A DNA stretch of 64,000 nucleotides from Candidatus Falkowbacteria bacterium RIFOXYD12_FULL_34_57 (GCA_001780285.1 MFGN01000034.1:10462-74461), one strand, 5' to 3'. Shown: positions 1,690 through 63,509, counted from the stretch's first letter. Notes: generated by a model not told the origin, from the letters alone. A program made the numbers and translations.

Positions 1690-1943
1690 ATTTTTAAATG
1701 AAAAACTAAAAACTAAAAACTAAGGAATCGCTTATGCGACATTTTTATATATCTTTTATTTAATATCTATTAATATAACTGAAAAGTTAATTTTTATCAA
1801 GAGATAAATTATAAAATAACAAGACTACAAACAAATTAAAAGAAACAAATTTAAAATTACAAACTGTTTAATTGTTTTAATTTTAAATTTGATTATTGTT
1901 TGTATCTTGTATCCTTGTGTCTTGTGTCCCCAAAATCTATTTC

Positions 1944-1986
1944 AGAAAAAAAACGACCCCTTGTTGAACTTATGCTCAACAAGGGG
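1944..1986 (-). terminator. Intrinsic terminator ending the transcript of the GC-rich island
   Basis: An 11-bp stem (CCCCTTGTTGA at 1957-1967 pairing with TCAACAAGGGG at 1976-1986) is followed on the minus strand by a U8 run (plus-strand A8 at 1946-1953). Confidence 0.8.
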
Positions 1987-2353
1987 TATTTGTAAAATTT
2001 TATTTGGTCGGATCTCTTGCCATACGCGGGTGCCTCCCGTCAAAGAAGTCGGCCTGGCGACCGGAAATGGTGCCGCTTCTTTTTTGCATCAAATAAATTA
2101 ACTCGCACCGATCACCGTGTGCCTCCCATATGCCCGCTGATTGGGGCTTTGGCCGGGGGCGTTAGATCGATTCACGAGACCATAGCCTCCCTGAGAATTC
2201 ACATCCCTTTTTAAAACCTTCTCAAGGGTCAATTATATTTGTACCGCCCCTAATCGACCAGGGGCTAAAACTGAAGCTTTAACTCCATTCCGCCTCCATT
2301 GGCCTGTTTTTTGGAATCGCGCGCCTTTCAAGCGAGAAAGGCGCTCTGGCAGA
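1987..2353 (-). ncRNA. GC-rich untranslated tail / candidate structured RNA downstream of the 340-aa ORF (class unknown)
   Basis: No minus-strand ORF exceeds 29 codons. Hairpins lie at 2311-2334, 2237-2254 and 2035-2069. There are five GGAG(G) motifs, and the region is bounded by the terminator at 1944-1986. Confidence 0.3.
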
Positions 2354-3376
2354 TTATTGTAGTTTTACTCTGGCGAGTTTTTCCCTGAGATCAGGGTTGC
2401 CGCCGTTGCCGCCTCTTCTGTCTTCCCTTTTGCCGGAAGCCATTCTTCTCAGTCTATCCTGGGCATCGGCTTTTTTCTTGGCATCGGCTTCCGCATTCAG
2501 CTTGTCCAGATCTGCTTTCATTCCCAGATTTTCAATGGCATTGAAAAATGCTCTTGATCTGATACCGTGCTGATCATCACCTTCCCAGCCTTCGGGCTGA
2601 AAATCGCTGGCCATCTGAAATGGGTGGCGGAGACCGTTGTCGCGAATGTACTTTTCAGAGCTGGAAATCAGAGCGTCAAACCTTTTCTGCTCTGCCGCAA
2701 CATGTTCAGAACGAAGATAATCTATCGCCCACCAAAAATCCTGATCAGAAACTTCAGCCTCGGAATTGTTTTTGATTTCATTGATAATATCTTCCATACC
2801 AGATTTGTACTCCCCTTTTTTAAAGACGGCATGGAAGACATCCGGTGCCTTGTAAGCATAATCTTCGGCAAGAAGCAGGGCATTGAGTATTTTAACGCCC
2901 TGATCCCTTCTGGAGCCAAGACCGCCAAGCCATTCTTCAATGACACCGGCATCAATTCCGGACTTTTCCATTTCAAAAGCGTAAACAACCAGATACCGCA
3001 GATATCCATCTTCAATAGCCGGCTTCAAGGCATCAGCGCAGGCCAGATCCTTGAATTCATTCACAATAGAACCGAACACCTGTCCCATATTTTTACCGGC
3101 GCGGAAACGATCAAGGGCCAATTTTGACATATAGGAAAAATTTTTTCCATTGAGTCTATCATTCTGAGCCTTCTGTGCCCTGAGAACCGCCTGACGGGAA
3201 TAGTAAGAATTGCATTTTGAACATACAATATGCCCCTCTTTTTTTTCTCCGCCACAGCCCTTGATTGGACAGACTGTCAGTTGTTTGCCGGCCATCTGAT
3301 CTTTCATGATTGAAAAATCAACGAAAAATTTTTTCTGATCTGTTTTTTTTGTTTCTTTGGTTGCTGTTGTTGTCAT
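2354..3376 (-). CDS. Hypothetical protein with N-terminal zinc ribbon (CPIKGC...CSKC), GC-rich
   Basis: 340-aa ORF with SD AAAGGAG 8 nt before the ATG and its own consensus promoter. The C-terminus is basic (RRGGNGGN). I recognise no family. Confidence 0.8.
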   Translation of the reverse strand: MTTTATKETKKTDQKKFFVDFSIMKDQMAGKQLTVCPIKGCGGEKKEGHIVCSKCNSYYSRQAVLRAQKAQNDRLNGKNFSYMSKLALDRFRAGKNMGQVFGSIVNEFKDLACADALKPAIEDGYLRYLVVYAFEMEKSGIDAGVIEEWLGGLGSRRDQGVKILNALLLAEDYAYKAPDVFHAVFKKGEYKSGMEDIINEIKNNSEAEVSDQDFWWAIDYLRSEHVAAEQKRFDALISSSEKYIRDNGLRHPFQMASDFQPEGWEGDDQHGIRSRAFFNAIENLGMKADLDKLNAEADAKKKADAQDRLRRMASGKREDRRGGNGGNPDLREKLARVKLQ

Positions 3377-3514
3377 TTGACACGCTCCTTTTTGCCCAAT
3401 GGGCGATGTAATAAAGATTTGAAAAAATTGTTAAGGTTCTTCCTATCCTCTGTTAAGAGTTACAATTTAAAAAACAAATTTTAACCCTTATGAAGAATAA
3501 TAATTTATTATATC

Positions 3515-3543
3515 AATATAGCATATTTTTTAATATTTGTCAA
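3515..3543 (-). promoter_or_regulatory. Sigma70-type promoter of the 340-aa ORF
   Basis: The minus strand reads TTGACA (3538-3543), a 17-nt spacer ending in TGc, then TATATT (3515-3520). Confidence 0.65.
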
Positions 3544-3679
3544 GCTTTTTTCCCTTTTGATTATTTTGCTAATATTAAAAAATTAAAAGCTAATAACTAA
3601 AAAAGAAAAACTAAAAGTAGCAATTTAAAACTTAAAATATGAAATTAATAACTTTACTTTTAATTTTAAACTATTAACT

Positions 3680-3738
3680 TTTAATTTAAAAACCCCGGCG
3701 AACATTTTGCATTCTTGCATTATATTCGTCGGGGTTTT
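3680..3738 (-). terminator. Intrinsic terminator after the 430-aa ORF
   Basis: AAAACCCCGGCGAA (3688-3702) pairs with TTCGTCGGGGTTTT (3725-3738), and a U-rich run follows on the minus strand. Confidence 0.7.
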
Positions 3739-3753
3739 AGAAGCCGTTATGGC

Positions 3754-5046: not shown

Positions 5047-5174
5047 GATAAAATTCCTTTCTTTTTTTTGATTAATATAAAATGTAAATGTTCATGTTCC
5101 TCATAAAAATTTATAAATTTATTTCTAAACTTCTATCAGGAAAAAATAAATAAAATATTTATTTTATTGTCTAC

Positions 5175-5203
5175 ATTGTATCATATTTTTCTATATTTGT
5201 CAA
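5175..5203 (-). promoter_or_regulatory. Sigma70-type promoter of the 430-aa ORF
   Basis: The minus strand reads TTGACA (5198-5203), a 17-nt spacer ending in TGa, then TACAAT (5175-5180). Confidence 0.65.
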
Positions 5204-5337
5204 GTATTTTAGTTTTTTTTATTAAATATTAGCCACATTAATTAAAAGTTTAATTAATTTACAAAAAAATATTGAGCTATAACTCAATATTTTACTATTT
5301 AACCTTATAGAATTTTAACTAGCATGCTTGCGACATA

Positions 5338-6930: not shown

Positions 6931-7124
6931 TGCAAAATTTGCAAGTGAAAAATTAAAAGTTTATTCCGCCCAAGACGGATCAGTTGTTTATTATTTTAAA
7001 TGTTAACTGAAAAGTTAAAATTTGGGCAAGAAAAGGATAATATTAATTATTTTTTTTCTTTGAGATTCCTATTCGCGTTGTCATTAGTTTCGAAAAAAAT
7101 AATTAATATTATCCTTTGTGCTAT

Positions 7125-9194: not shown

Positions 9195-9198
9195 TTTT

Positions 9199-9325
9199 TA
9201 AGCTAAAAGCTAATAACTAAAATATGGAAACAACGGTTAAAAACCAAAAATAATTTATTTAAAAATCATGTTTTCAGTTTTAAGTTGTTACTTTTAGTTT
9301 TTCGCTCTTAGTTCTTAGTTTTTTA
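9199..9325. repeat. AT-rich imperfect palindrome between the membrane partner and the ATPase gene
   Basis: The left arm AAGCTAAAAGCTAATAACTAAAAT is roughly complementary to the right arm AGTTTTAAGTTGTTACTTTTAGTTTTT. The word AAAAGCTAATAACTAAAA also occurs at 3587-3607 and, rearranged, at 24229-24255. Confidence 0.6.
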
Positions 9326-10927: not shown

Positions 10928-11261
10928 AATTAACTTAAATTTTCAACTTTTCAAATCACATAGGACTTACGCGTTTGCCTAAAAAGACACCCAATGTCCA
11001 ATATTTTTAAAATAAGTATTAACATTTAAAGCCTAATTGAGGGTTAAATTCTGTACACAGGACATTGGGTATCTGTAAAAATGTAAAATTCTATCAAACG
11101 CGCAAATTCTATCATAATAAAAAATAATTAAGATTTAATCCGCCTCGGGTGGATATAGACTTTAAAAACTTTTACCAGTTATTATTATACCACATTTACC
11201 CCGCAAACCACAAATAAAAAAACAGGTCCAATAGCCTGTTTTTTTATGATTATATTAATTT

Positions 11262-16319: not shown

Positions 16320-17720
16320 CTATTTTATCAAATTTTGCCCTATTTTGTAAGCCTCGCCTGCTCCCATCAGAATCAGCACATCGCCCGATTTCAATTTTTC
16401 CCGCACATATGCCTCGCATTCTGCCAGTGTGGGAATATAGCTTGCGTTTTTCTGTCCTGCCTTTATAATTTTTTCAATCAAATCCCGACTATGCACATCG
16501 CCCTGCGCCTCGCGGGCCGAGCCGTAAATATCCAAGACAATCAACTCATCGGTATCGCCGAAACTTTCGGCAAAATCATTGAGCAGCGCTTTAGTGCGCG
16601 TAAAAGAATGCGGATGAAATACAGTAATTATTTTTTTATGCGGATACAGCTCTCTGGCGCCGGAAAGCGAAGCCCTTACTTCTGTCGGATGATGCGCATA
16701 ATCGTCAATAATGGCGGCGCCCCGGTATTTGCCCATCACCTGCATGCGCCTCTCCGCCCCAGTAAACTCTTCCAGATACTCCCTGATTTTAAATAAATCT
16801 ATTTCCAGCTCAATACACATCGCGATTACCCCCAAAGCATTGGAAATATTATGCCTACCCGATAGACAAATGGAGAATTCTCCCAGATCATCACCGTTAA
16901 TACTGACGCTGAATATCTGCCGACCGCCGGCTTGTTTAATCTTATGTGCTACATAATCAGCAGCATCATCTATGGCATAAGTAACTACCCGAGCCCTGGA
17001 ATTTACCTTGGCAATCCTGCAAATGACCGGATCGTTAAAATTACAAATTAAAATTCCTTTTTTTGGCATTTTACTTATAAAATCTATAAAGGCCTGATTA
17101 TAATCATCGGCTGTCCTGAAAAAATCAGGATGATCATATTCAATGTTATTAAGCAATACTGCTTTTGGTCGGTAATATTTTAATTTATTTTGATACTCAT
17201 CAGCTTCTATCACAAAATAATTAGATTTACCAATTAATGTTCCTCCCCCCAATTGCGGAATCTTAGCGCCCACAATCAAGTTCGGGTCACATCCGGCTTC
17301 CCGCATTACAAAAGCAAGCCAAGAAGAAGTTGTAGTCTTGCCATGAGTTCCGCAAACGGCAATGCCGTATTTATCATTAAACACACGAGCTAATCCTTCC
17401 GGATAAGCAATAGTTTTAATTTTACTTTTGAGGGCAAAGTCAAGTTCTTTGTTCGCTTCCGGCTTGAAGGCCGTGGAATAAATAATCAAATCTGTATCTT
17501 TGGCGATATTATCCGGACTGAATTTATGCGAAACTTTGATATTGTCTTTTTGCAGTTCATTGTAATAATAATGATCTCCTTCATCGGATCCGCTGACTTC
17601 ATAACCCATTTGTTTATACATCCGCGCCAAAGCCGAAGTCCCTGCGCCCTCTATCCCGATGATATGGATTTTTTTTCCGCCGAAAGCGGATCCGCCTTCG
17701 GCGGAAATTTTATCTAACAT
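16320..17720 (-). CDS. murC: UDP-N-acetylmuramate--L-alanine ligase
   Basis: Motifs IHIIGIEGAGTSALA and CGTHGKTTTSSW; 466 aa. Confidence 0.9.
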   Translation of the reverse strand: MLDKISAEGGSAFGGKKIHIIGIEGAGTSALARMYKQMGYEVSGSDEGDHYYYNELQKDNIKVSHKFSPDNIAKDTDLIIYSTAFKPEANKELDFALKSKIKTIAYPEGLARVFNDKYGIAVCGTHGKTTTSSWLAFVMREAGCDPNLIVGAKIPQLGGGTLIGKSNYFVIEADEYQNKLKYYRPKAVLLNNIEYDHPDFFRTADDYNQAFIDFISKMPKKGILICNFNDPVICRIAKVNSRARVVTYAIDDAADYVAHKIKQAGGRQIFSVSINGDDLGEFSICLSGRHNISNALGVIAMCIELEIDLFKIREYLEEFTGAERRMQVMGKYRGAAIIDDYAHHPTEVRASLSGARELYPHKKIITVFHPHSFTRTKALLNDFAESFGDTDELIVLDIYGSAREAQGDVHSRDLIEKIIKAGQKNASYIPTLAECEAYVREKLKSGDVLILMGAGEAYKIGQNLIK

Positions 17721-19053: not shown

Positions 19054-19076
19054 ATTCTTTTGGAACTCGCAACTTG

Positions 19077-20210
19077 TTATGAGTTATGAGTTATGAGTTT
19101 ATTTATAATTTTTACCATTTCCGCACTCGCATTCTGCTTGATAATTTTACCAATATTTTCCCGAAGTTTCTGCTGTTTATGCTTATTTTCCATTAAATTT
19201 TTTATACTTTGAATAAATTTATTAGAATCAAGATATTTTTGATTCAAAACAATGGCCGCTTCATTGTCCATAAACATCCTGGCATTATCTTCCTGATGGG
19301 TGCGGGGCATCGGAATCAGGATACAAACCTTTTTCAAAAATGACAATTCGGTCAAAGCGCCCATGCCGCATCTGGATACTACAATATCCGCCGCGTTATA
19401 AGCATCCATCATCTGGGTAGTATTCAAAAACTCAAACTTGCGATAATCCTCCCTGTGCAGGTCATACTTCCACTCCAGCGGAGATTCCGCCTCTCTACCC
19501 TTTCCGGTGGCATGAAGAATCTGAAAATTTTTCGTAAGCTCTTGCAACGATGTGACCACAAGCATATTCAAAAAAACAGATCCGGTTCCCCCTCCGGTAA
19601 TAAAAATTACCGGCTTATTATCTTTTAAATTAAACTTTTTCAAACTTTCTTGGCGCGTTCTGCTTTTTTGTAAATTAATAAATTCCCTGCGGACAGGATT
19701 ACCAATCCAAACAGGCTTCTTGCAAAAATCTTCTAACGATTTTTTAAAAACGGTAGTAATCACCTTGGCGCACCTGCACATCAGCTTGTTTGCAAGCCCC
19801 GGACGCGCGTCCTGCTGATGGATGATTATTGGAATTCTCCTGGCCCGGGCCGCCCAAACAAAGGGCACGCTGACAAAACCGCCGGCGCTAATCACTAAAT
19901 CAGGGTTGCATTTTTTTATTATTAATAAAGAATCAAAAAAACCCAAAATAACAAAAAACGGATCTATAAAATTTTTCCAGGAAAAATAACGGCGAAACTT
20001 GCCGCTGTTAATGGAAAAAAAATCAATTCCTTCTCTTCTTACCATCTCCTGTTCTATGCCGTTTTTGGTGCCGACCCAATAAAAATTATAATCCCCGCCC
20101 GCAAGTTCATCAAAAATAGCAAGCAAAGGACTCACTGAACCGCCCGTCCCTCCGCCGGTTAAAATAATGTTTTTTTTATTCTTGATATTTATACTTTTTT
20201 GTGTTACCAT
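19077..20210 (-). CDS. murG: Undecaprenyldiphospho-muramoylpentapeptide beta-N-acetylglucosaminyltransferase
   Basis: Motifs ILTGGGTGGSVSPLLAI and ITGGGTGS. I place the start at the ATG (complement of 20208-20210). The 36-codon extension in the ORF track (to 20318) looks non-coding. Confidence 0.85.
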   Translation of the reverse strand: MVTQKSINIKNKKNIILTGGGTGGSVSPLLAIFDELAGGDYNFYWVGTKNGIEQEMVRREGIDFFSINSGKFRRYFSWKNFIDPFFVILGFFDSLLIIKKCNPDLVISAGGFVSVPFVWAARARRIPIIIHQQDARPGLANKLMCRCAKVITTVFKKSLEDFCKKPVWIGNPVRREFINLQKSRTRQESLKKFNLKDNKPVIFITGGGTGSVFLNMLVVTSLQELTKNFQILHATGKGREAESPLEWKYDLHREDYRKFEFLNTTQMMDAYNAADIVVSRCGMGALTELSFLKKVCILIPMPRTHQEDNARMFMDNEAAIVLNQKYLDSNKFIQSIKNLMENKHKQQKLRENIGKIIKQNASAEMVKIINKLITHNS

Positions 20211-21785: not shown

Positions 21786-21794
21786 GAATATTTA

Positions 21795-21901
21795 GTCAAA
21801 AGTTTAGAAAGTCCATAAAGTCAAAAGCTTGGAATCGCTACGCGATATTTTATTTAATATCGCGTAGCGATTCCAGACTTTATAGACTTTCGACTTTTGA
21901 C
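21795..21901. repeat. Long palindromic intergenic element, family 1 core (GGAATCGCTACGCGATATT and its exact complement)
   Basis: The left arm GTCAAAAGTTTAGAAAGTCCATAAAGTC...GGAATCGCTACGCGATATT pairs with AATATCGCGTAGCGATTCC...GACTTTCGACTTTTGAC. It fills the ftsW-mraY spacer. Confidence 0.8.
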
Positions 21902-21907
21902 TTTCAA

Positions 21908-22960
21908 CTATAGTGTATGATCCAATAAAAACAATATAATGCCAATGGCGGCGGTAATTCCGGCTACAATCCAAAAGCGCATAACAATTTTTGCCTCTGG
22001 CCAGCCGCGCGCCTCAAAATGATGGTGAATCGGCGCTGATAAAAATACTTTTTTGCCGCCGCGAAACCTCTTTGATAAAAGCTGAATAATAACAGATGCT
22101 GCTTCTAATACGAACAAGAATCCGATAATTGGCAAAAGCAGAGCATAATTAGTGAGCATAGCAATAATTCCAAGTGTTACACCAAGACTCATCGCGCCGG
22201 TATCACCCATATAGAAACGGGCGGGTATAACATTGAACCATAGAAATGCAATTAGAGCGCCGATAATCACTCCGCAAAACACAGCCAAATCATATCTGCC
22301 CATCATAAAAGCTATAACCCCGTAAGCTCCGTAAGAAACCAGCAATGTTCCACCGGCCAGACCGTCAAGGCCGTCAATCTCATTTACGGAAAAAGCGGTT
22401 CCCACAATCACAAGAATAAAAAACGGAATATACCACCACCCTATTTCAAAATTTCCCAAAAATGGAATGTGCAGAACCGTCCAATCCAGTTTGAAGTAAA
22501 ACCAAAACGCACCAACACCCGCAATAACCGTATAAATAAGTATGCGATGAATCATATTGAGTCCGCCGCCGCCAAACACACCCTTTTTTCGGACATCAAG
22601 CCAATCATCAAGTAATCCCACCAGGGCTGTCGCCACCAATGCCCCAAGTGGCAAGAGAGTTTGGCTTCGAGATAAAAAATTTAAATTTTTAAATATATCT
22701 ATTGGAAAAAATTTTGCTAAATAAAAAAAGAATGCTGCGAACATGAGAACCGTACCCCAAACAAGCACTCCGCCCATAGTAGGCGTGCCGGTCTTGTGCA
22801 AATGCATCTTAGAAAAAAGGGGCGTGGTTCCGCTATTTCTAATGTTTTTACCTAATTTATATTTATATAAAAAATGAGTAAGCAGGGGCGTCCAGGAAAA
22901 TGTAAACAAAAAAGCGAATGTCGCAAAAAAGAGGACTTTTATAACATAAAAATCTTGCAT
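21908..22960 (-). CDS. mraY: Phospho-N-acetylmuramoyl-pentapeptide transferase
   Basis: Motifs NEIDGLDGLAGG, GDTGAMSLG and PIHHHFE; 350 aa. Confidence 0.9.
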   Translation of the reverse strand: MQDFYVIKVLFFATFAFLFTFSWTPLLTHFLYKYKLGKNIRNSGTTPLFSKMHLHKTGTPTMGGVLVWGTVLMFAAFFFYLAKFFPIDIFKNLNFLSRSQTLLPLGALVATALVGLLDDWLDVRKKGVFGGGGLNMIHRILIYTVIAGVGAFWFYFKLDWTVLHIPFLGNFEIGWWYIPFFILVIVGTAFSVNEIDGLDGLAGGTLLVSYGAYGVIAFMMGRYDLAVFCGVIIGALIAFLWFNVIPARFYMGDTGAMSLGVTLGIIAMLTNYALLLPIIGFLFVLEAASVIIQLLSKRFRGGKKVFLSAPIHHHFEARGWPEAKIVMRFWIVAGITAAIGIILFLLDHTL

Positions 22961-22965: not shown

Positions 22966-23073
22966 TTTATAGTCGAAAATCAAAAGTTGAAAGTCGAAAG
23001 TTTGGCACTATACCTACTATGGGAGGGGCTCCAGAATTTTAACTTTATAGACTTTACAAACTTTTGACCATAG
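22966..23073. repeat. AT-rich palindromic intergenic element (AAAGTY-word arms, divergent core)
   Basis: The arms are TTTATAGTCGAAAATCAAAAGTTGAAAGTCGAAAGTTT and TTTTAACTTTATAGACTTTACAAACTTTTGACCATAG. The central loop is GGCACTATACCTACTATGGGAGGGGCTCC. Confidence 0.6.
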
Positions 23074-23894: not shown

Positions 23895-24017
23895 TTATTT
23901 ATCTCCTTAAAAAATTCACCCCAACTTGCGCAATGCAAGGCGGGGTGTTTTTATTTACTATTGAAAAATTTTCAAAATGTTATATGATATTATTATACGA
24001 AGTATAATAATATCCAA

Positions 24018-24125
24018 TCAAAAGTTAAAAGTTCTTAAAGTTAAAAGCCTGGAATCGCTTCGCGATATATTAAATGCCACGAAGTGGCATCAATGACTTT
24101 CAACTTTCGACTTTTAACTTTAAAC
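24018..24125. repeat. Palindromic intergenic element, family 1 core plus a second small hairpin
   Basis: The arms are TCAAAAGTTAAAAGTTCTTAAAGTTAAAAGCC and GACTTTCAACTTTCGACTTTTAACTTTAAAC. The cores are GGAATCGCTTCGCGATAT (24051-24068) and TGCCACGAAGTGGCA. Confidence 0.75.
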
Positions 24126-24146: not shown

Positions 24147-24219
24147 GCCCCTTTAGCTCAATTGGTAGAGCAACGGTATCGTAAACCGTAGGTTGTCAGT
24201 TCAATTCTGATGAGGGGCT
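24147..24219 (+). tRNA. tRNA-Thr (anticodon CGU)
   Basis: Cloverleaf read by hand: acceptor GCCCCTT/GAGGGGC, D arm GCTC-AATTGGTA-GAGC, anticodon arm ACGGT-ATCGTAA-ACCGT, T arm GTCAG-TTCAATT-CTGAT. No CCA is encoded. Confidence 0.9.
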
Positions 24220-24230
24220 CACAAAAACCT

Positions 24231-24280
24231 AAAACTAATAACTAAGCTAAAAGCACATGAAAAAGTTATTAGTTTTTTAT
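24231..24280 (+). terminator. AT-rich intrinsic terminator after tRNA-Thr
   Basis: A perfect 13-bp stem (AAAACTAATAACT at 24231-24243 pairing with AGTTATTAGTTTT at 24264-24276) is followed by TTAT. Confidence 0.6.
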
Positions 24281-24313
24281 TTACTAATATTAAAAAATTT
24301 AATCGCTTTTGTC

Positions 24314-30717: not shown

Positions 30718-32031
30718 TTATCTATTCTCCCACTCATCAGTCTGCCTGACCAGCAGTTCTTCCGCCTTTAAGGGGTCTCTCATTATTTCTTTGACAACCT
30801 TTTCCATCCTAACTCCCTGCGAGCCCTTTATTAATAACAAATCCCCCTCCCTCATGCGCTCTTGCGCAAATCTTCCGGCCTGAACCGCATCAGGAAAATG
30901 AAAAATATTATCTCTCTTCATTCCAGCCCCTTCTGCTCCCCGCGCTATATCACGAGACCGCTCTCCTACGGTTATCAATTTATCAATTTTTGATTCAAAA
31001 ATATGTTTCCCCACCATTCTATGACCTTCCTCGCAAAAAATGCCCAACTCCAGCATATCACCCAAAATAGCAAATCTCCTTGCGTCCTCTCTTATGGGAA
31101 TGGCGGATAAAACATCCAAGGCCAACAAAGAAGATTCCGGAGATGAATTATAAGTATCATCAATAAGCAGCGTATTTTTAATGCCGGGCAAAACCCTCAT
31201 TCTCCCCTTGGGCTGTTCCATAGTCTTTAAACCCTCGGCAACATCAATTAAATTCATTTCATAAACAATCCCCAGAGAAGCACCGGCCAAAGCCGCATAA
31301 ACAGAGGCTTTACTGATAACTTCCGGCAAAAAAACAGGAACAAAAGAACCCTGATATGAAAGTTTAAAATTAATACCGGATAAAAACTCTTCTCTTCCTG
31401 CGCCATCCGCGTTCTTCTTGCTATAATGGAAAATAACTTCGCGCGCGCGCACTGCTGCATTTTCACCGAATCCATAACTAAGTATCCGCGCCCTGCTTCT
31501 ATCTCCTGTTTTTTTAACTTTTTCGTCATCATAATTAAGCACCGCAAAGCCATTCTTGGGCAAACTCTCTATCAATTTTCCCTTTTCTTTTTCTATTTTT
31601 TCCACTGAACCAAAAAATTTCAAATGAGAGTGTCCGATAATTGTCACTACACCCACCTTGCACGGCGCAATGGACAATAAATATGACATATCGCCCGCCC
31701 GGTCAATTCCCATTTCCAAAACCAATATCTTTGGATAGTATTTATTGCGGAAAAATATCAACTTGGCAGCCTTTAAAAAAATAATCATCCAACCAATGGC
31801 AGATCTGCCAGCGGATTTGGCGCCAATAATGGTGAGCGGTAAACCGATTTCGTTATTATAATTTTTTATATTCTTGCGGACATTAAACCGCGTTGACAAG
31901 ACAGCATAAATGGCGTTTTTCGCGCTGGTTTTACCCACGCTGCCGGTAATTCCGATAATATCCGGCTTGTATTTTACCAAGATAATCTTCGCTAAAATTT
32001 TTAATTTGAATTGTAATAATTTTTTTAACAT
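30718..32031 (-). CDS. murF: UDP-N-acetylmuramoyl-tripeptide--D-alanyl-D-alanine ligase
   Basis: Motif IGITGSVGKTSAKN, Mur ligase central and C-terminal domains, 437 aa. Confidence 0.85.
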   Translation of the reverse strand: MLKKLLQFKLKILAKIILVKYKPDIIGITGSVGKTSAKNAIYAVLSTRFNVRKNIKNYNNEIGLPLTIIGAKSAGRSAIGWMIIFLKAAKLIFFRNKYYPKILVLEMGIDRAGDMSYLLSIAPCKVGVVTIIGHSHLKFFGSVEKIEKEKGKLIESLPKNGFAVLNYDDEKVKKTGDRSRARILSYGFGENAAVRAREVIFHYSKKNADGAGREEFLSGINFKLSYQGSFVPVFLPEVISKASVYAALAGASLGIVYEMNLIDVAEGLKTMEQPKGRMRVLPGIKNTLLIDDTYNSSPESSLLALDVLSAIPIREDARRFAILGDMLELGIFCEEGHRMVGKHIFESKIDKLITVGERSRDIARGAEGAGMKRDNIFHFPDAVQAGRFAQERMREGDLLLIKGSQGVRMEKVVKEIMRDPLKAEELLVRQTDEWENR

Positions 32032-32084
32032 GTAACAAGTAACAGATAACAGGCAACAAGTAAACCTATTTTCTATTAATTAAT

Positions 32085-32423
32085 TTATTTATATAGCATT
32101 GCCCCAATTTCATCGGACAATTCCACTAATAATTTATAATTATTTTGATTTATATACTTCTCAATTAATGAAAAGTGTAATAAATATTTAGATTCTTTTA
32201 ATGAACCATAAGAAATTTTTAAAAAATTATTATATACTTTACAATCATCACCATTTCTACGGGCAAAACCTTCTACATAATTCAAAACAACAGACAATGT
32301 CAACCTCCTTATTTGTGAAGTAATTCCATAAATTTCATTTTTGGGAAATTTTTTAGTAACCCTATAAAAATCATGTGCATATTTATCCATTTTAATTTTC
32401 AAATTTTCACAATAATTACTCAT
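32085..32423 (-). CDS. Four-helix-bundle protein (23S rRNA intervening-sequence protein / Avd-like family)
   Basis: 112 aa. AHDFYRVTKKFPKNEIYGITSQIRRLTLSVVLNYVEGFAR...SLKESKYLLHFS matches the family signature as I remember it. The gene is flanked by a 12-bp inverted repeat. Confidence 0.75.
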   Translation of the reverse strand: MSNYCENLKIKMDKYAHDFYRVTKKFPKNEIYGITSQIRRLTLSVVLNYVEGFARRNGDDCKVYNNFLKISYGSLKESKYLLHFSLIEKYINQNNYKLLVELSDEIGAMLYK

Positions 32424-32465
32424 AATTATTAATGTTGCTTGTTACTTATTATTTATTACCCGAAA

Positions 32466-37349: not shown

Positions 37350-37428
37350 AGTTATTGCGAGTGGAGCGAAGTAATTCCGTTAACAACGAAATTGCTTCGC
37401 CCACTTCATTCACTCGCAATAACAAAAC

Positions 37429-46294: not shown

Positions 46295-46403
46295 AATTTA
46301 ATATTAAATATTAAGCAAAAAATATACCTTCGACTTTTCAGTTAAATAATTAAAATAACAAATAACTGATCCGCCTGGGGCGGAATAGACTTTTAACTTT
46401 ATC

Positions 46404-47840: not shown

Positions 47841-47854
47841 GATGTGTGTGCACA

Positions 47855-47997
47855 CTAGTTAAAAGTTGAAAGTTTATAAAGTCTAAAGTCTGTAATCGCT
47901 ACGCGATATTTTAATCAATTGCCGCGCTGTGCCCGCCGAATTGAAGAGAAGCGGCATCCACAACTTTCGACTTTTAACTTTATAAACTTTACACTAG
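47855..47997. repeat. Palindromic intergenic element, family 1 core plus a second hairpin; its right arm doubles as the left inverted repeat of rnpB
   Basis: The arms are CTAGTTAAAAGTTGAAAGTTTATAAAGTCTAAAGTC and CAACTTTCGACTTTTAACTTTATAAACTTTACACTAG. The core is TGTAATCGCTACGCGATATT (47891-47910), followed by TGCCGC...GCGGCA. Confidence 0.7.
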
Positions 47998-48020
47998 ACA
48001 TAGCTTCGCTATGTCCTTTA

Positions 48021-48411
48021 ATATCAAGGCAAGCTATAAGCCGGATTCTGTATCCCTTGCGGAACGATAGTTATTTATCTTGGCTTGGTGTTGCCGCCAA
48101 GCTCATGCGAACCACTTTTCATCACCCCTTGAAAGAGATGGTTTGTTCTTGCTCCAGGCAGGGTTTACCACGAACTGTTGTCGCCAACAGCCGAGAATTG
48201 TAGCCTTTCATCTCGAGAACGAAAAACCTCAATTCACTTTTCACCTTTGGCCAGCACAATGCACTGGTTAGTATAGTCTCTGCGGCACTTTCCCTAAGAT
48301 TGCTCTTGGTGGGCGTTACCCACTACCACTTTGTTAATAAAAATTAACAGGAGTCCGGACTTTCCTCTTCTAATCTAAAAATTAAAAGCAACTATCCGCT
48401 TACCTTGATAT
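48021..48411 (-). ncRNA. rnpB: RNase P RNA (bacterial type)
   Basis: The minus strand contains the universally conserved GAGGAAAGTCCGGACTCC. P1 forms between ATATCAAGGTAAGC (5' end) and GCTTGCCTTGATAT (3' end), with the 3' motif ACAGAATCCGGCTTAT. The ends are approximate to within a few nt. Confidence 0.9.
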
Positions 48412-48434
48412 TAATAGACGTAAATTAATTATAT

Positions 48435-48576
48435 CTAGTGTAAAGTTTATAAAGTCGAAAGTCATCCGCTCGAGGCGGATCAGCCAAAAAATTAATTAGA
48501 TATTAGACGGCTGAAAAGTTTGGAAAAATTTCTTTTTTTATCTCATAAACTTTCAACTTTATAAACTTTCAAATTT
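48435..48576. repeat. Palindromic intergenic element, family 2 core; its left arm doubles as the right inverted repeat of rnpB
   Basis: The arms are CTAGTGTAAAGTTTATAAAGTCGAAAGTC and CATAAACTTTCAACTTTATAAACTTTCAAATTT. The core is GTCATCCGCTCGAGGCGGATCAGCC (48461-48485). Confidence 0.7.
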
Positions 48577-48763
48577 TTACTGGCCGATAGGGCTATAATA
48601 ACATAATCCCATCTTAAAAGTCAATTAAATTTCATAAACAAAGAATAAGATAGAATTAACATAAAAATATTTTTTTGTCAATAATTTTTTAAAAAATAAA
48701 AAAATAAAAAAATTTACTAAATTTTTTATTTTAAATTAGCTAAAAAATTAACAAGCAAAAGAC

Positions 48764-48792
48764 TTGACAAGTTTTTAAAAATATGATATATT
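48764..48792 (+). promoter_or_regulatory. Consensus promoter with no downstream ORF
   Basis: TTGACA (48764-48769), a 17-nt spacer ending in TGa, then TATATT (48787-48792). Confidence 0.6.
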
Positions 48793-48798
48793 AATATA

Positions 48799-49092
48799 AT
48801 ATCATATAGCGGGGGCGATGGGTCGATTATTCGGCTCACTCGCCCCCGAATAAAAAAACTCAAGATCTTCTCCTCTTTAGAATAGATAAACAAAGTCTAA
48901 ACAACAAACAGAAGATTTTACATATCAAATTAATTTGCTTTAGAAGCAACTAAAAAAGCTATTCCAATTTCCCTAGGAGTAGCTTTTTGGTTCTAGCCCG
49001 CCGACAGTCAAGAATTCTAAGTCGAACTAAAGAATGATTCAAAAAATATTCAAAATAAAAAAGACAGCTTGTTTCAAACTGTCTTTTTTATT
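48799..49092 (+). ncRNA. Candidate ~295-nt non-coding RNA (class unknown)
   Basis: The unit is bounded by the 48764 promoter and a bidirectional terminator (AGACAG 49062-49067 / CTGTCT 49079-49084, then a T run). It begins with a 37-nt GC-rich hairpin GGGGGCGA...TCGCCCCC (48811-48847) and contains no credible ORF. Confidence 0.35.
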
Positions 49093-52497: not shown

Positions 52498-52743
52498 ATT
52501 TTATCTCTTTAATATAATTATAATTTATATCTTAATACACATTAACACACTTGTCGAGCTTGGTCCCTAACAGAATTTGAAGAGGTAGAAGCCCCACCCC
52601 CTCAGCAAGTAACCCCTTAAAAATATATCCTGTTTTACTAAGAGTAAACATCCTCTGCTTTGAACACCTTTGGTCATACCCAGGTTCCATCCTTGGCAAT
52701 CAAACAACCAAAAACACCCTCTATACGAGGGTGATTTTGCTTG

Positions 52744-52816
52744 TCCGCCCAACAGGATTTGAACCTGTGACCTTCTGCTTAAAAGGCAGCTGCTCTACCG
52801 ACTGAGCTATGGGCGG
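52744..52816 (-). tRNA. tRNA-Lys (anticodon UUU)
   Basis: The minus strand reads CCGCCCA-TA-GCTC-AGTCGGTA-GAGC-A-GCTGC-CTTTTAA-GCAGA-AGGTC-ACAGG-TTCAAAT-CCTGT-TGGGCGG-A. The first pair reads C1:G72. A terminator CACCCTCGTATAGAGGGTG plus a U run follows. Confidence 0.85.
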
Positions 52817-57074: not shown

Positions 57075-57271
57075 ATAATTTAACTAGTATTTAGATTATT
57101 ATTAAGCTCTGTCTTAAGACAGAATAAAAATAATTGCTTTCGCAATATATCTGTTATTATACAGAATTATCAAAAAAAGTCAACAAGGACGCAAAACAAA
57201 GACTAAAAAGTAAAATCAATAAACAAAAATCATAGAAAAATATTTGTTTATAATGTTTTTGGTTTTTAGTT

Positions 57272-58605: not shown

Positions 58606-60936
58606 TCAATCCTCTTTATAATTGAATATTGGACCAATTGCCATAATTTTCTTTTCTCCTTGTTTGTATATCAATGAGACAAACTGAACACCGTTTATGC
58701 TTTCTGTTATTTTCTTTCTTTCGGATTCAATAGTGAAACTTTTATCAGACCTCTCTTTTACAAAATACAATTTAGCAAAATCCACAATAAAATCCTTGTC
58801 ATTTGTATCAAGTTCTTGATTGGATAATTCTTTTATTATAATTCCTTTTATTTTTTTTAAAGTATCATTAAGTTCTTTTAGCTGGACAGAAATAATATTT
58901 GTCTTTTTAGTAATTTGCAAGGCAAAAAACATTTTTAAAAGCATTTCATTTTTGGCAATTAACTCATCAACTAGTTCCAAGTTGGGTTCAATAAAATTAT
59001 AAGAGTTGTCTACCGCATTAACACCAAAACTAGAAGCTGTTTTTTCTTCAAAATAATTAACAAGTTTATCTTGTTGAAGATGCAGGCTAACCCAAGAACC
59101 CAAAATGGTATTCATGTCTTTTTTGTTTTTCCATGACTGATTATTTATGAAAACCGGCTGTCCCAATCTATCATAAGATAAGATGGATTTTGCAATATCA
59201 AGCGTTGACCAATAAATATTATTATTCCATGTATACACATCAAAATCATTTGTTAAATTTCTTAATTTTTTTAATTCTTGATCATAGTTTTCATAGTTGG
59301 TGTTTAACAAGTAGTATTTATCTACGAGCCCAGAAACATCCGGATGAATCAGATTTATAACATCCATGCCAAAACCAACACAACGAAAAGTTGTTTGATA
59401 ATATTTTTTACTTGCGCAAGAAGTTATAAGTTTTTCATCTTTGATGAGAGAATTTACTATCTTTATTTCATCTCCGGTTAAAGATTTAAAAATATAGTCA
59501 TTTGGCCAATATGAATCTTGAAACATTTTCATGCCCAATTTTGGCCTTTCGTTTTTATTATTCCTGTCAAATCCTCCTTCTAATTTTGAGAAATAGAATT
59601 CAAAAATATTTTTTTGCAGCTTAGCCAAGTCTTCTTCTCTGTTTTTATTATTTGGTGAAAAAATTTCTTCAATGGAATAATCTTCGCCAAAAACACTTAT
59701 CAGAGATTCGTGATAATGTAGATAGGTTAAATCTTTACGGAGACCGGAAAAAAATGAAACAAATTTATAGATATTGGCCCATTTGCTTTTTATATCATTA
59801 TTATCAGAAACATCACTGGCGATAAAACTGGCCGCCACCATGTTTATTATCCAATCATCATGATCAATCAAACAATTCTCGCAATCATTATTTCGATAAT
59901 ATAACGGAAAAACAGAATTAAGCCATTTTAAGGTTAAATAAAAATTATTTAATTTAGCATTTTCCCTGTAGTCATTTGGCACCTTAAATTGGTCATAATT
60001 TCTAAAATATAAAAAAATTGGTGATTTATGCTCACCGTCAGATTTATAAATTAAATCAACTTCTTTATAAACATCGTTTTGCAAATAATCAGGCATTAAA
60101 AAACTAAAATTCTCCGCATCCTGCATACTAAACTTATTTTCATCAACCAAATTCGGCTTATCGTTTATTTGTGCACTCTTTGGCTTGAGCAAATTAAGCG
60201 CCACAGCATAATATGCCATCTCCATTCGAATTCCTTCTAGGATCGGATCGTTGGCGATACCAACATCGTTTTGTCTTTTTTTGTATCTAGTTAGGGCTAT
60301 ATCAAATAATTTCTTATTTATTTCCCACAAATTGTCATAAAAAACATTTTTCTCAATTTCCTTGAACACTTGATTCAAATTATTTTGATTATAGTAAATC
60401 AGAAAATCAGTTGTAAGCACAAGCGGTATTTCATTTTTTAATAATTCCTTGTATGCGCCATAAAAATCACTTGTACCAAACAACGGTTCTTTTATTATGG
60501 CAAAGCCATCCTTATTAAAATCCTCAATATATGGATCTAGATTTATTTTTCTGGAAACATCATGATAATTGGCTACATCCACTTTAACATTAATCGGTAA
60601 GCTATATGTACTTTTGTTGGGTTGGAAGTCGTTTTTTATCTTTTGATAAAAATGTCCAAATGTTAAATATTCTGCTTCTATATCCGTAGTGGTTCCAAAT
60701 TCTGAAAAATCACCATTATTATTTCCATTACCCTCTGGCAGTCTTCCTGTTTCTGTTGTACTGGCGGTATTTACTGGTGTTTTTAGGGGCGCCACTGGTT
60801 TGTTGAAAAATTTAATAATAAAAAAAGCGCCAACTATACAGATAGCTAATAGAATTAAAATTGATGAGGTGATAAATTTGTTTGGCTCCTGTTTGTCTAT
60901 CCCAGGCTCCTTTTTCCATTCTTGATCTATAAACAT
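58606..60936 (-). CDS. Large N-terminally anchored exported protein, hypothetical
   Basis: 776 aa with one TM helice (ILILLAICIVGAFFIIKF) and an N/K/Y-rich extracytoplasmic body. I cannot confirm a family (possibly DUF3160-like). Confidence 0.7.
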   Translation of the reverse strand: MFIDQEWKKEPGIDKQEPNKFITSSILILLAICIVGAFFIIKFFNKPVAPLKTPVNTASTTETGRLPEGNGNNNGDFSEFGTTTDIEAEYLTFGHFYQKIKNDFQPNKSTYSLPINVKVDVANYHDVSRKINLDPYIEDFNKDGFAIIKEPLFGTSDFYGAYKELLKNEIPLVLTTDFLIYYNQNNLNQVFKEIEKNVFYDNLWEINKKLFDIALTRYKKRQNDVGIANDPILEGIRMEMAYYAVALNLLKPKSAQINDKPNLVDENKFSMQDAENFSFLMPDYLQNDVYKEVDLIYKSDGEHKSPIFLYFRNYDQFKVPNDYRENAKLNNFYLTLKWLNSVFPLYYRNNDCENCLIDHDDWIINMVAASFIASDVSDNNDIKSKWANIYKFVSFFSGLRKDLTYLHYHESLISVFGEDYSIEEIFSPNNKNREEDLAKLQKNIFEFYFSKLEGGFDRNNKNERPKLGMKMFQDSYWPNDYIFKSLTGDEIKIVNSLIKDEKLITSCASKKYYQTTFRCVGFGMDVINLIHPDVSGLVDKYYLLNTNYENYDQELKKLRNLTNDFDVYTWNNNIYWSTLDIAKSILSYDRLGQPVFINNQSWKNKKDMNTILGSWVSLHLQQDKLVNYFEEKTASSFGVNAVDNSYNFIEPNLELVDELIAKNEMLLKMFFALQITKKTNIISVQLKELNDTLKKIKGIIIKELSNQELDTNDKDFIVDFAKLYFVKERSDKSFTIESERKKITESINGVQFVSLIYKQGEKKIMAIGPIFNYKED

Positions 60937-60944
60937 GGAAATTA

Positions 60945-61089
60945 GTTAAGGTTTATAAAATAAAAGTTAAAAGTCTGAAATCGCTTACGCGATAATATGA
61001 TAAAAATTTATAAACCTAAAAGTTAATTAAAATATTGTCGCAAAGCAACCCAATTACTTTTAACTTTATAAACTTTACGAATTTTCAAC
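60945..61089. repeat. Palindromic intergenic element, family 1 core
   Basis: The arms are GTTAAGGTTTATAAAATAAAAGTTAAAAGTC and ACTTTTAACTTTATAAACTTTACGAATTTTCAAC. The core is CTGAAATCGCTTACGCGATAAT (60975-60995). Confidence 0.7.
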
Positions 61090-61175
61090 TCATCTTTATT
61101 ATAACATTTTTTCAGATAAAAAACAAAAAATCGTTAATTTTTTAAATAACGATTTTTTATACTTAATACAACAAA

Positions 61176-62192
61176 CTATTTTAAATATTTGGCCTTGTTT
61201 CTTAAATGTTCATCGTATGTTTTACTAAAAATCGTCTCCCCTGTCGACGCACTTAGAAAATAATTATAATCTGTTTTATCGGGATAAATTGCAGCCGTAA
61301 TAGCGTTGAAGCCGGGATTTGCTATTGGTCCAGGGGGAAGTCCTGGGTTTTTATAAGTGTTATATGGTGAATCTATGTTAGTATCTTCTATGGTGTATTG
61401 CGGTTTATTTACCCCCAGAATATAAGCAAGGCTTGCACAAGACTCTAACGCCCTACCAGAATTAATTCGATTCCAAAAAACACCGGAAACCAACTTCATA
61501 TCCCCAAAACTACGCACCTCTTTTTCAATAATTGATGCCATGGTTATTATTTCGTAAATTGTTTTTCCTTGTTTTTTGATATCATCACGCATTTTGGGTG
61601 TTAATTTTTGATCTAAATTTTTAAGCATTTTTTGCACAATATCATTTGGGGTAGCGTCCTCATAAATTTTATAAGTATCAGGGAATAAATATCCCTCTAA
61701 CCCTGAATTTTTTGGCCTATCTGCTAAAAATTCATAATTTTTCCTATAATCTGGATTGTCTTTATTCACAACCTCCAAAAAATTACCACCCTGCAATACT
61801 CCTTCTTTTTCAAAATAGGAAACAATATCTTTTATATTCCACCCCTCTATAATTTTAATTGTTTTCTCTTTGCTTACTGCCCTGCCCCATGACAATATTT
61901 CAACTATATCCCTTGGATTCATGGTTTGATTTAAAACATACTCTCCTGCTTGTAATTTTGCTTCTAAATTATTGTTCCACAAATAAAACTTAAAATAAAA
62001 TTTAGACTTTATTAAATCTTTTTGATATAAGTTTTCAGCTATCTTATTGGCCCCCTCGCCCGTCTTCACCACAAAGACGATACCATCTTTGTTGTTGCCA
62101 GATATTGGACCACTAACTGCATTTAAATAAACTCCGAAAAACAATGCCGCGGGAAAAATTAATATTAATAATATTTTTAAAAATTTTTTCAT
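61176..62192 (-). CDS. mltG: Endolytic murein transglycosylase MltG (YceG-like)
   Basis: N-terminal anchor, ASIIEKEV...VFWNRI...SPYNTYKNPGLPPGPIANPG; 338 aa. Confidence 0.85.
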   Translation of the reverse strand: MKKFLKILLILIFPAALFFGVYLNAVSGPISGNNKDGIVFVVKTGEGANKIAENLYQKDLIKSKFYFKFYLWNNNLEAKLQAGEYVLNQTMNPRDIVEILSWGRAVSKEKTIKIIEGWNIKDIVSYFEKEGVLQGGNFLEVVNKDNPDYRKNYEFLADRPKNSGLEGYLFPDTYKIYEDATPNDIVQKMLKNLDQKLTPKMRDDIKKQGKTIYEIITMASIIEKEVRSFGDMKLVSGVFWNRINSGRALESCASLAYILGVNKPQYTIEDTNIDSPYNTYKNPGLPPGPIANPGFNAITAAIYPDKTDYNYFLSASTGETIFSKTYDEHLRNKAKYLK

Positions 62193-62271
62193 AATTTAGT
62201 TAAAAAATGCAATATCTATAAAGTTTAAAATAATAAAAAAGTACCTTAAAATGTTTAACTGGCTCACGGGA

Positions 62272-63348
62272 CTATAAATATTTATCCAACTTTTTAATTT
62301 TTAATTTATCTACAATTTTTTTTACATCTTGAGCTTTTTCCTTTGGACAAAGAAGTAGGGAATCCTCTGTCTCAATTACCACCATACCCCGAACCCCCAC
62401 CATGGTAATAAGCTTATCAGAATAATTATAAACTAAATTATCACTTCCTTCAATATTAAGCACCATCCCTTTGGTAATACTTCCTCTTTTACTCTTAGAC
62501 AAAATATCTTTAACTGTGCGCCAGTTACCAACATCAGCCCAACCGAAATCAGCAGGAATAACCAATAAATCTTTAGTTTTTTCTATAATTCCATAATCCA
62601 TGGAGATTGGCTCAATTTTTTTAAATTCTTTGGCAATATTTTTTTCTCCGCCTTCTTTTTCAATGTTTTTTTCAATATTTTTCAATATTTTATACATTTT
62701 TGGCAAATATTTTTTGTATAAATCCAGAAGTGTGTCGACTCGCCAAGCAAAACAACCAATATTCCATAAATACTCCCATTTTTGCAAATATTCTTGGGCA
62801 ATTTTTAAGCTAGGCTTCTCCTTGAAACAATCCACTTCAAAAACTTTAAATTTTCCAATCTCATCCTTTTGCTCCCCCATTTTAATATACCCATAACCGG
62901 TTTCTGGATATGTGGGATTTATACCAATTAAAACTCCCATTGTTGGTTTTTTGTTTATAGCCTTTTCCACTAATTTAATTGTTCTAATATAATCTTTTTC
63001 ATTCTTTATATAATGATCAGAATTAATGCTTATCATTATTTCTTTAGAATTTTTTTTATGAAGTGTTGCTGCGGCAAATCCAATGGCAGCAGCTGTGTCT
63101 TTTTTATCCGGTTCAATAATATAATTTTTAGACAAAAAACGAGGAAGTTGCTTAGATATTATATCAATCTGAGATCTATTGGTTGCAATATAAATATCAC
63201 TTTTCCGAAATCCACTAATTAGACGGTCATAAGTACTGACAAGTAGTGTTTTATCAGCAATGATGGGTTTAGTTTGTTTAGGTGTATTTTTTCGCGATAC
63301 AGGCCACAATCTGGTACCCGAACCGCCGGCAAGTATAACTAATTTCAT
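62272..63348 (-). CDS. Mannose-1-phosphate guanylyltransferase-like nucleotidyltransferase
   Basis: MKLVILAGGSGTRLWPVSRKNTPKQ; 358 aa. Confidence 0.8.
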   Translation of the reverse strand: MKLVILAGGSGTRLWPVSRKNTPKQTKPIIADKTLLVSTYDRLISGFRKSDIYIATNRSQIDIISKQLPRFLSKNYIIEPDKKDTAAAIGFAAATLHKKNSKEIMISINSDHYIKNEKDYIRTIKLVEKAINKKPTMGVLIGINPTYPETGYGYIKMGEQKDEIGKFKVFEVDCFKEKPSLKIAQEYLQKWEYLWNIGCFAWRVDTLLDLYKKYLPKMYKILKNIEKNIEKEGGEKNIAKEFKKIEPISMDYGIIEKTKDLLVIPADFGWADVGNWRTVKDILSKSKRGSITKGMVLNIEGSDNLVYNYSDKLITMVGVRGMVVIETEDSLLLCPKEKAQDVKKIVDKLKIKKLDKYL

Positions 63349-63509
63349 TGTAATTCACTTCGCGAACCCGTGCTGCTCCGCCAGCTGGCGGATACAGGAT
63401 ATGCGAATATTAATATTAAAATTATGATAATAAAAATAATTGTGGATAAGTCTAGGGTTGATTTTTTTTGTTATTTATGATATAATAAAAATGAAAACAA
63501 AAATAAAAA

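Follow-up and report, generated by a model that had tools for sequence, protein, structure and literature searches.

Intervening sequences (IVSs) of 23S ribosomal RNA (rRNA), known from Coxiella, Leptospira, Salmonella and others, are insertions parasitic on the host transcript. They consist of a terminal inverted-repeat stem, heptameric direct repeats and, optionally, an open reading frame (ORF) of the S23p/PF05635 family in the loop, and measure about 430 nt with this cargo (PMC4990558). In Coxiella the terminal stem is 28 bp long and the tandem heptameric repeats (GACAGAT) vary in copy number among strains; the origin of IVSs is called unclear, one hypothesis being that they are remnants of transposition (PMC4990558). 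Many short, ORF-less, non-intron insertions are found at known IVS sites in rRNA genes of the Candidate Phyla Radiation (CPR), and ORFs for the IVS protein (IVP) occur there in both 16S and 23S insertions (PMC11270868). Here we analyse intergenic palindromes in 64,000 nt of Candidatus Falkowbacteria bacterium RIFOXYD12_FULL_34_57 (GCA_001780285.1, MFGN01000034.1:10462–74461); this whole stretch is referred to as the window. An earlier note on this DNA knew of no named class with such an architecture, which is in fact that of 23S rRNA IVSs (PMC4990558) and also fits the inverted heptamer-repeat pairs of Xanthomonas (PMC4692102). Unlike IVSs, the window elements lie between protein-coding genes and beside RNase P RNA and tRNA, most are ORF-less, and RNase III excision would apply to them by analogy. 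We consider it rather probable that they are mostly cargo-less members of a widespread hairpin class, of which the classical 23S rRNA IVSs are the rRNA-resident members, and that their transcripts would be cut by RNase III while the elements turn over as selfish or semi-domesticated insertions.

Heptamer repeats are another described class to be compared. The short tandemly repeated repetitive (STRR) heptamers of cyanobacteria were reportedly described by Mazel in 1990 and by Vioque in 1997. Repeats of this length are over-represented and little studied; in Xanthomonas, GGGAATC repeats form about 70 convergent pairs, most of which are transcribed (PMC4692102). In Beggiatoaceae, cyanobacteria and Bacteroidetes, TAACTGA heptamers precede start codons by a few nucleotides; they are suspected of spreading horizontally, with no mechanism yet described (PMC4679880). 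We found no link to IVP genes or rRNA IVSs in either of these papers. All three repeat types share with the window elements tandem intergenic 7-nt words, often directly upstream of starts, length variation, and a distribution across phyla without a known vector; the convergent Xanthomonas pairs are inverted. The window words differ in being AT-rich, degenerate (7–9 nt) and nearly always found in two complementary arrays with a GC core or IVP gene between them.

Six long palindromes of 105–145 nt (Table 1), every one of them present where the earlier note had placed it, fold as RNA much better than shuffled sequence (z –2.5 to –15.8, fold energy against dinucleotide-preserving shuffles). None contains an ORF. 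Their terminal inverted repeats form an extended stem, as in IVSs, and at 100–150 bp they have the size of MITEs, miniature transposable elements with inverted repeats. The arms are degenerate tandem arrays of 7–9-nt words (GAAAGTY, AAAAGTY, TATAAAGTY), which bears out the AAAGTY-type arms that had been described: the arm word AAAGTTTATAAAGTC, with up to two mismatches, has 11 matches versus 0.73 expected. Twelve aligned AAAGT arms give a consensus with termini yTAGT...ACTAr, and copies in this genome are 77–85% identical over 52 nt. The period-7 repetition of the arms had gone unnoticed. By Tandem Repeats Finder (TRF) the window has over 15 arrays of period 7, built of words such as AAAAACT, AAGCTAA, TAACAAG, TTGTATC and ATTTTGC, and intergenic autocorrelation is highest at lag 7 (0.336 versus 0.317 at lags 6 and 8), a peak that recurs in the 80 related loci and 118 arm-pattern loci introduced below. 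Like known heptamer repeats, these are tandem 7-nt intergenic units, here degenerate and mixed with 9-mers. No Rfam family covers arms or cores at gathering or E-value thresholds.

In the division and cell wall (dcw) operon the gaps from stop to start codon are filled exactly by palindromes. One arm of element 21786–21907 terminates at the mraY stop codon TAG (21908–21910, just beyond the tabulated interval), the other end lies 7 nt from the ftsW ATG, and the inner stem is made of two inverted copies of a GC-rich mini-hairpin, the family 1 core discussed below (21831–21850 and 21857–21876). Element 22966–23073, which has neither a family 1 nor a family 2 core, starts 1 nt past the upstream stop codon and stops 9 nt short of the mraY ATG, with TRF arrays of periods 7 and 9 at 22971 and 23041. 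No Shine-Dalgarno sequence lies between either element and the ATG that follows it. Sigma-70-like promoters fall in other intergenic regions, and none separates a palindrome from the dcw gene downstream of it; a weak match (9/12) is seen at 21945–21917, just upstream of 21786–21907. We also considered the arms themselves as sigma-70 promoters (TTGAAA-N17-TATAAA occurs in 21786–21907, minus strand) and rejected this as a general function: the arms are unflagged in promoter scans, and word order varies.

Single-strand binding sites for an RNA-binding protein, as proposed for the TAACTGA repeats, would suit the way 3' arms stop 6–10 nt before starts that have no Shine-Dalgarno sequence (ftsW, mraY, alaS, and the genes starting at 60936 and 9194), and would recall the heptamer direct repeats that precede start codons by a few nucleotides in Beggiatoaceae, cyanobacteria and Bacteroidetes (PMC4679880). 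The window arrays are, however, paired and complementary and would be double-stranded; elements also flank tRNA and RNase P RNA and sit in 23S rRNA, all of them untranslated; and the words vary between lineages at the same junction. We therefore regard such a role as quite improbable.

Two of the palindromes enclose RNase P RNA. In the minimum-free-energy fold of 47850–48585 (minus strand), the four arms around this RNA pair over long range to form a two-tier enclosing stem (arm 48442–48462 with 47970–47990, arm 48549–48569 with 47869–47889), the inner flank duplex having 25 contiguous bp (–40.6 kcal/mol). The established RNase III processing stems around 16S and 23S rRNA have the same geometry (PMC6582327). 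The RNase P unit with its element 48435–48576 has a promoter-like site just upstream (48624–48595, minus strand), as does the tRNA-Thr unit with its element 24018–24125 (23961–23988, plus strand), so the hairpins would belong to the primary transcripts. In the same neighbourhood, at 48764–48860 (plus strand), a strong sigma-70-like promoter (TTGACA-17-TATATT with TG) precedes a GC hairpin about 50 nt long (GCGGGGGCGA...TCGCCCCCG) and an A-run; a small RNA may be made here, antisense to the region upstream of RNase P.

The earlier note had suggested that the elements could act as bidirectional terminators. On either strand the GC hairpin does stand between an A-rich 5' arm and a T-rich 3' arm, and the family 2 hairpin 46384–46370 (minus strand) and the family 1 hairpins (plus strand) are flagged as weakly terminator-like. 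Intrinsic termination nevertheless seems very unlikely for the long palindromes: their stems have no U-run after them, they are unflagged on the gene strand, and they fill dcw stop-to-start gaps exactly, between essential co-oriented genes with no strong promoter-like site (≥10/12) downstream. Terminator-like sites are scarcely enriched (27 versus 19.5 ± 4.2), and the family 2 sites at 6961, 11137, 14831 and 16177 are likewise unflagged on the gene strand. Only the hairpin 46384–46370 has the features of an intrinsic terminator.

A cargo-bearing member lies in the same operon, 9 kb from the nearest palindrome. The cassette 32028–32465 is an insertion with ftsI on one side and a murE/murF-type Mur ligase gene on the other, and its loop holds the S23p ORF that is optional in IVSs: ORF 32085–32423 (112 aa) matches PF05635, "23S rRNA-intervening sequence protein" (E 2.7e-22), TIGR02436, "four helix bundle protein", and PDB 2GSC (Xanthomonas XCC0516), with a weak match to Avd of diversity-generating retroelements (DGRs), which PF05635 is known to resemble (PMC10053308). 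A jackhmmer search seeded with this ORF against all ORFs of 199 loci gathers 16 members in one family. To score flanking inverted repeats we took the best local alignment of the 5' flank with the reverse complement of the 3' flank, with 265 small ORFs as controls (95th percentile 30.8). The window cassette scores 36. Of the scorable IVP genes in fetched loci, 11 of 13 exceed the control 95th percentile (median 45 versus 20), as do three of five loci picked by protein similarity alone, making 14 of 18 IVP homologues overall. Arm words differ from locus to locus (AAAGTT, GTAAGAC, TAAAACA, TTTAAAC, GCGTAAC, GAGAGTGGGAGA, TTATGAA) and the architecture is constant. The cassettes, that of the window included, are co-directional within operons, as in gatC/IVP/gatA (L204), polyprenyl synthase/IVP/gcpE (L206), among pilin-like genes (L207) and in mraY/IVP/ftsW (L170). 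Several AAAGT arms abut genes starting MKIEKFEDILAWQ.

Orthologous junctions are polymorphic for these elements. We compared the mraY-ftsW junction in 80 metagenomic loci whose MraY is 65–79% identical. Some have no spacer (L125, L137, L145, L150, L177); others have an empty hairpin built of other words, including AGTTTTA (L133/134), TGAATAA (L149/152), TTAGTNA (L183) and GCGTAAC (L123); and in L170 the hairpin encloses an IVP gene. The empty hairpin of L133 and the IVP-bearing one of L170 use the same AGTTGTA word family. Upstream of mraY, most relatives have hairpins of ATGCGAAT/TACAAAT-type words, not AAAGT. Elsewhere in the genomes of these relatives AAAGT arms do occur, 18 of them in some 960 kb.

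When 185,579 species genomes were scanned for the arm pattern AAAGTTTATAAAGTYNAAAGTY, at least 118 loci matched, of which a few to about 25 could be chance matches by a rough composition-based estimate. Among the matches listed, most are Bacteroidota or Patescibacteria by record title, with some Bdellovibrionales, Chlorobiota and uncultured Gammaproteobacteria and one Woesearchaeote, and many have a complementary arm 40–100 nt downstream. One match places arms of the window type within rRNA itself: in Campbellbacteria CP011215.1 (L008), an AAAGT-arm hairpin forms a 111-nt insertion in place of a 6-nt 23S rRNA loop, at the tip of a helix (Rfam LSU model positions ~282–288). In a Moranbacteria contig (L090) the 23S-5S spacer is filled by an AAAGT palindrome, in a Berkelbacteria contig (L087) such a palindrome abuts the 3' end of RNase P RNA, and in L005 and L032 arms adjoin tRNAs. 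As for phages as a vector, only four viral contigs contain the pattern; one of them, IMGVR_UViG_3300029288_000519 (L201), carries three tandem strict arm patterns at its end (45–128). A Bacteroidales contig (L083) with a group II intron (3262–3576; Rfam D1–D4 domains) also has a very long AAAGT word array at its end. Taken together, the observations establish the architecture and fold of the elements, their association with IVP genes, rRNA, RNase P RNA and tRNA, and the polymorphism of their sites; that they are transcribed through, cut by RNase III and able to spread is inferred.

Much of this could also be expected of classical MITEs mobilized in trans by a transposase encoded elsewhere, for instance an IS630/Tc1-type enzyme duplicating TA: inverted arms and a length of 105–145 bp, the defined termini with TA at both ends in most copies, the similarity of copies within the genome, the presence or absence of elements at orthologous junctions, and the same arms across many phyla. 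We nonetheless find this explanation unlikely. Word order and number vary between the arms of different copies, and many unrelated word families show the same architecture at the same junctions, which one transposase family would not explain; every cargo gene, moreover, codes for an IVP and none for a transposase. As the earlier note had stated, the window has no transposase: among 52 long ORFs picked from the window ORF list and compared with Pfam there is none, RAYT (IS200/IS605-like Y1) included, nor a reverse transcriptase or RNase III. No transposase adjoins arms in the inspected loci, where no systematic search was made. The TA that borders most copies is self-complementary and part of the palindrome, so that a target duplication cannot be told from the palindrome end. 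De Gregorio et al. are said to have described palindromic MITEs of the Correia/NEMIS and ERIC types, and Neisseria hairpins are reportedly cut by RNase III with altered mRNA stability. These MITEs share with the window elements a length of 100–150 bp, inverted arms, co-transcription with neighbours and long hairpins; they have one consensus and a target-site duplication, whereas the window has low-complexity arrays, many word families and no demonstrable duplication.

It is the arms and not the GC-rich cores that define the element class: the word-repeat arms are conserved, and the cores, on which the earlier note had built its description, are variable cargo. That observation was real and its emphasis wrong. 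Family 1, GGAATCGC-NNN-GCGATAT, is a recurring core, since ATCGC-NNN-GCGAT has four exact copies (21834, 21859, 24054, 47895) versus 0.02 expected; among the other copies that had been listed, 60975–60995 is a variant with a 4-nt loop, 1724–1742 is degenerate (GCGAC), and 2303–2315 has only GGAATCGC in common and does not belong. The core is absent from 198 other loci (1.8 Mb; relatives and other phyla) and is therefore a repeat specific to this genome. In Nostoc, Elhai et al. (2008) reportedly found small dispersed repeats nested in heptamer repeats; these are genome-specific mini-hairpin cores of about 20–27 nt inside heptamer arrays, as family 1 is in AAAGT arms, though in another phylum and with other sequences.

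Family 2 survives as a family for four similar copies (6961, 11137, 46366, 48461), which read arm-GTCTAT-TCCGCC-NNN-GGCGGA-TCAG; the other six listed are GC hairpins of diverse kinds. Seven unrelated loci share the stem ATCCGCC-NNN-GGCGGA, which in a Lutibacter contig adjoins a tRNA. Beyond those four copies we rejected family 2 as a mobile family, the rest being unrelated GC hairpins. Five of the 16 listed cores lie in full palindromes and three more in one-armed half-elements, fewer than the "most" that were said to centre long palindromes. A family 2-type stem is found even inside the murC ORF: at 17676–17706, two overlapping TCCGCC-NNN-GGCGGA hairpins fall in the first 15 codons of the murC-like ORF 16320–17720. 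The true start of this gene may lie further downstream, and the hairpins would then be intergenic.

The likeness to repetitive extragenic palindromic (REP) sequences that had been suggested does not hold either. REP and REPIN elements are imperfect palindromes of 20–40 nt with a terminal GTAG or CGTC tag (PMC3733652); here the terminal tag is absent, and GTAG appears only in the loop of two family 1 copies. A function at the DNA level, as cruciforms or as protein-binding arrays comparable to REP elements and bacterial interspersed mosaic elements with gyrase, integration host factor or nucleoid proteins, would be consistent with wobble-type mismatches without strand asymmetry, with the about equally good folding of both strands, and with the orientation of the three asymmetric family 1 copies, which is the same on the chromosome regardless of local transcription. 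The missing REP tag speaks against it, as do the element boundaries, which match transcript features (stop or start codon, rRNA helix tip, edges of stable RNAs) and no DNA landmark; we give it little credence.

Under the reading we prefer, that of an IVS-type hairpin class, each arm is a degenerate tandem array of 7–9-nt words and the centre holds small GC hairpins or a PF05635 gene. Elements would be co-transcribed with their host unit, whether in dcw operon gaps, in the tRNA-Thr leader or on both sides of RNase P RNA. The transcribed arms would zip into an interrupted AU-rich helix of about 25–45 bp with the GC core as nucleus, and by analogy with rRNA IVSs and rRNA processing stems we infer that RNase III would cut this arm helix. 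The cut would separate neighbouring cistrons, trim the precursors of stable RNAs and free them, or liberate the IVP mRNA, and it would give the downstream gene a short leader without a Shine-Dalgarno sequence. Over evolutionary time elements would be gained and lost, lose their cargo and change by word slippage; given such turnover, they would behave as selfish or semi-domesticated insertions. Two functions offered by the earlier note, RNA processing sites and non-autonomous mobile elements, are both viable on this reading and jointly come close to the best explanation.

Several results weigh against it. In the stems bracketing IVP genes, G-U mismatches on the sense strand are not in excess over A-C (37 versus 27), and sense and antisense folds are similarly stable, although GC skew confounds these energies and they are inconsistent; neither comparison demonstrates RNA-level selection. 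At two of the five independently picked IVP loci, word arrays are present on both sides and their complementarity is weak. The similarity of arms across phyla is partly by construction, because the AAAGT loci were found with the arm pattern itself. None of the window elements occupies an rRNA helix tip, the location of IVSs, so they are not IVSs in the strict sense. A search of the fetched loci for an RNase III signature motif found none, which is uninformative at about 20 kb per genome.

A wider and more tentative proposal is that PF05635 (Avd-like) genes and heptamer-word arms might together make up one widespread class of mobile cassettes that reside in transcripts of Patescibacteria, Bacteroidota and further phyla, with rRNA IVSs a minority and cargo-less junction hairpins decayed or non-autonomous copies. 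In that event, much unexplained bacterial heptamer-repeat DNA would be the footprint of IVP cassettes. That cassettes spread through excised RNA is pure speculation, conceivable because IVP and Avd, which partners the reverse transcriptases of DGRs, are homologues. We found no literature linking non-rRNA IVP genes or cargo-less junction hairpins with heptamer-word arms; our coverage was incomplete, and a prior description is possible.

Such a class would tie together three poorly understood things: rRNA IVSs, the small four-helix-bundle proteins that go with them, and the heptamer repeats of bacteria. Where rRNA IVSs come from and how they spread have been open questions since 1990, and the function of S23p/IVP and the over-representation of heptamer repeats are also unexplained; if the three are facets of one class, each becomes testable. 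In the tiny genomes of the CPR, such elements would then account for a sizeable part of what little non-coding DNA there is, and RNase III processing between cistrons may be a major layer of expression, including that of genes without Shine-Dalgarno sequences. For annotation, it would account for "23S rRNA intervening sequence protein" genes inside housekeeping operons.

Table 1. Palindromes, word-arm elements, the IVP cassette and stable RNA genes of the window (positions counted from its first nucleotide)
Feature	Position	Strand	Evidence
AAAGT palindrome filling the mraY-ftsW gap	21786–21907		RNA fold –66.8 kcal/mol, z –15.8
AAAGT palindrome filling the gap between an upstream hypothetical gene and mraY	22966–23073		z –2.45
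AAAGT palindrome with family 1 core, tRNA-Thr 5' leader	24018–24125		z –4.6
AAAGT palindrome with family 1 core, 3' of RNase P RNA (minus strand)	47855–47997		z –4.5
AAAGT palindrome with family 2 core, 5' of RNase P RNA (minus strand)	48435–48576		z –6.35
AAAGT palindrome with family 1 variant core, abutting the DUF3160 gene start codon	60945–61089		z –3.7
Cassette with cargo, inverted TAACAAG-word arms at 32032–32065 and 32434–32460	32028–32465	–	TRF period 7 at 32026–32063
AAAAACT x3.3 word arm with degenerate family 1 core, abutting the alaS start codon	1701–1742		TRF
Hairpin, ACAAG/CTTGT-type word arms, alaS leader	1819–1918		44-nt arms, 73% complementary; TRF period 7 at 1900
Hairpin, AAAAACT/ACTTTTA word arms	3570–3690		z –2.8; TRF
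Hairpin, AAGCTAA/GTTTTA word arms, filling an intercistronic gap	9195–9325		z –4.45; TRF
Short word-arm hairpin directly 3' of tRNA-Thr	24225–24295		
Word-arm hairpin beginning at the stop codon of an mgsA-like gene	57195–57271		29-nt arms, 76% complementary
Half-element, AAAGT-type arm and family 2 core	6947–6983	+	
Half-element, family 2 core and one ACTTT arm	11137–11175	–	
Half-element directly past the sugar transferase gene stop codon, terminator-like family 2 hairpin	46366–46403	–	
RNase P RNA, class A, between two flanking palindromes	48021–48407	–	Rfam RF00010, 209 bits
tRNA-Thr	24147–24220	+	
tRNA-Lys	52743–52816	–	

The remainder of the window gives these elements their setting. Its GC content is about 36%, and the minus strand carries almost all genes. 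By Pfam comparison of the 52 long ORFs, the dcw cluster comprises mraZ, rsmH, ftsI, a Mur ligase gene (murE/murF-type), mraY, ftsW, murG, a second Mur ligase gene (murC-type) and murB, and the window further encodes glycosyltransferases, dnaB and recR; it contains no rRNA. Reading the 47 intergenic stretches of at least 40 nt, we judged about 14–16 of them, roughly a third, to hold a word-arm hairpin, six being of the AAAGT type; elements at "nearly every operon junction", as first described, is therefore too strong. At the murG/amidohydrolase gene junction itself there is a perfect tandem heptamer, GTTATGA x3.4 (19076–19099), one-armed and partnerless. TIGR-Tas arrays (PMC12045711) were considered and set aside: the window ORFs gave no match to a guide-RNA-associated protein family, and the elements have no spacer-like architecture.

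Hairpins of other kinds are also present. Between a TsaD/TsaB-family ORF and the next ORF lies a near-perfect, GC-richer hairpin of 79 nt (37350–37428, AGTTATTGCGAGTGGAGCGAAG...CTCGCAATAAC, –38.5 kcal/mol). Cores of the form TCATTGCGAG...CTCGCAATGA in L149 and L157 resemble it, and cores gtcattctgagcgaagcgaagaatc adjoin AAAGT arms in L097, L034 and L012; this looks like a second widespread mini-palindrome family.

On the minus strand, the stretch 1956–2350 (about 390 nt) between a hypothetical gene and alaS is GC-rich, and word-arm hairpins separate it from the alaS start. It contains two similar boxes, GGGAGGCACAC and GGGAGGCACCC, and ends in a strong intrinsic terminator (1987–1956, minus strand; 14 bp and a T8 run). 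A search of Rfam at E ≤ 1 gave weak small-RNA matches only and no family for this stretch, which may be a divergent T-box-like alaS leader or an undescribed non-coding RNA. Finally, an inverted repeat not composed of heptamer words, a perfect 25 bp (AAAGGATAATATTAATTATTTTTTT) with a spacer of 36 nt, lies at 7032–7117, directly 3' of a TrwB/TraG-like ATPase gene.

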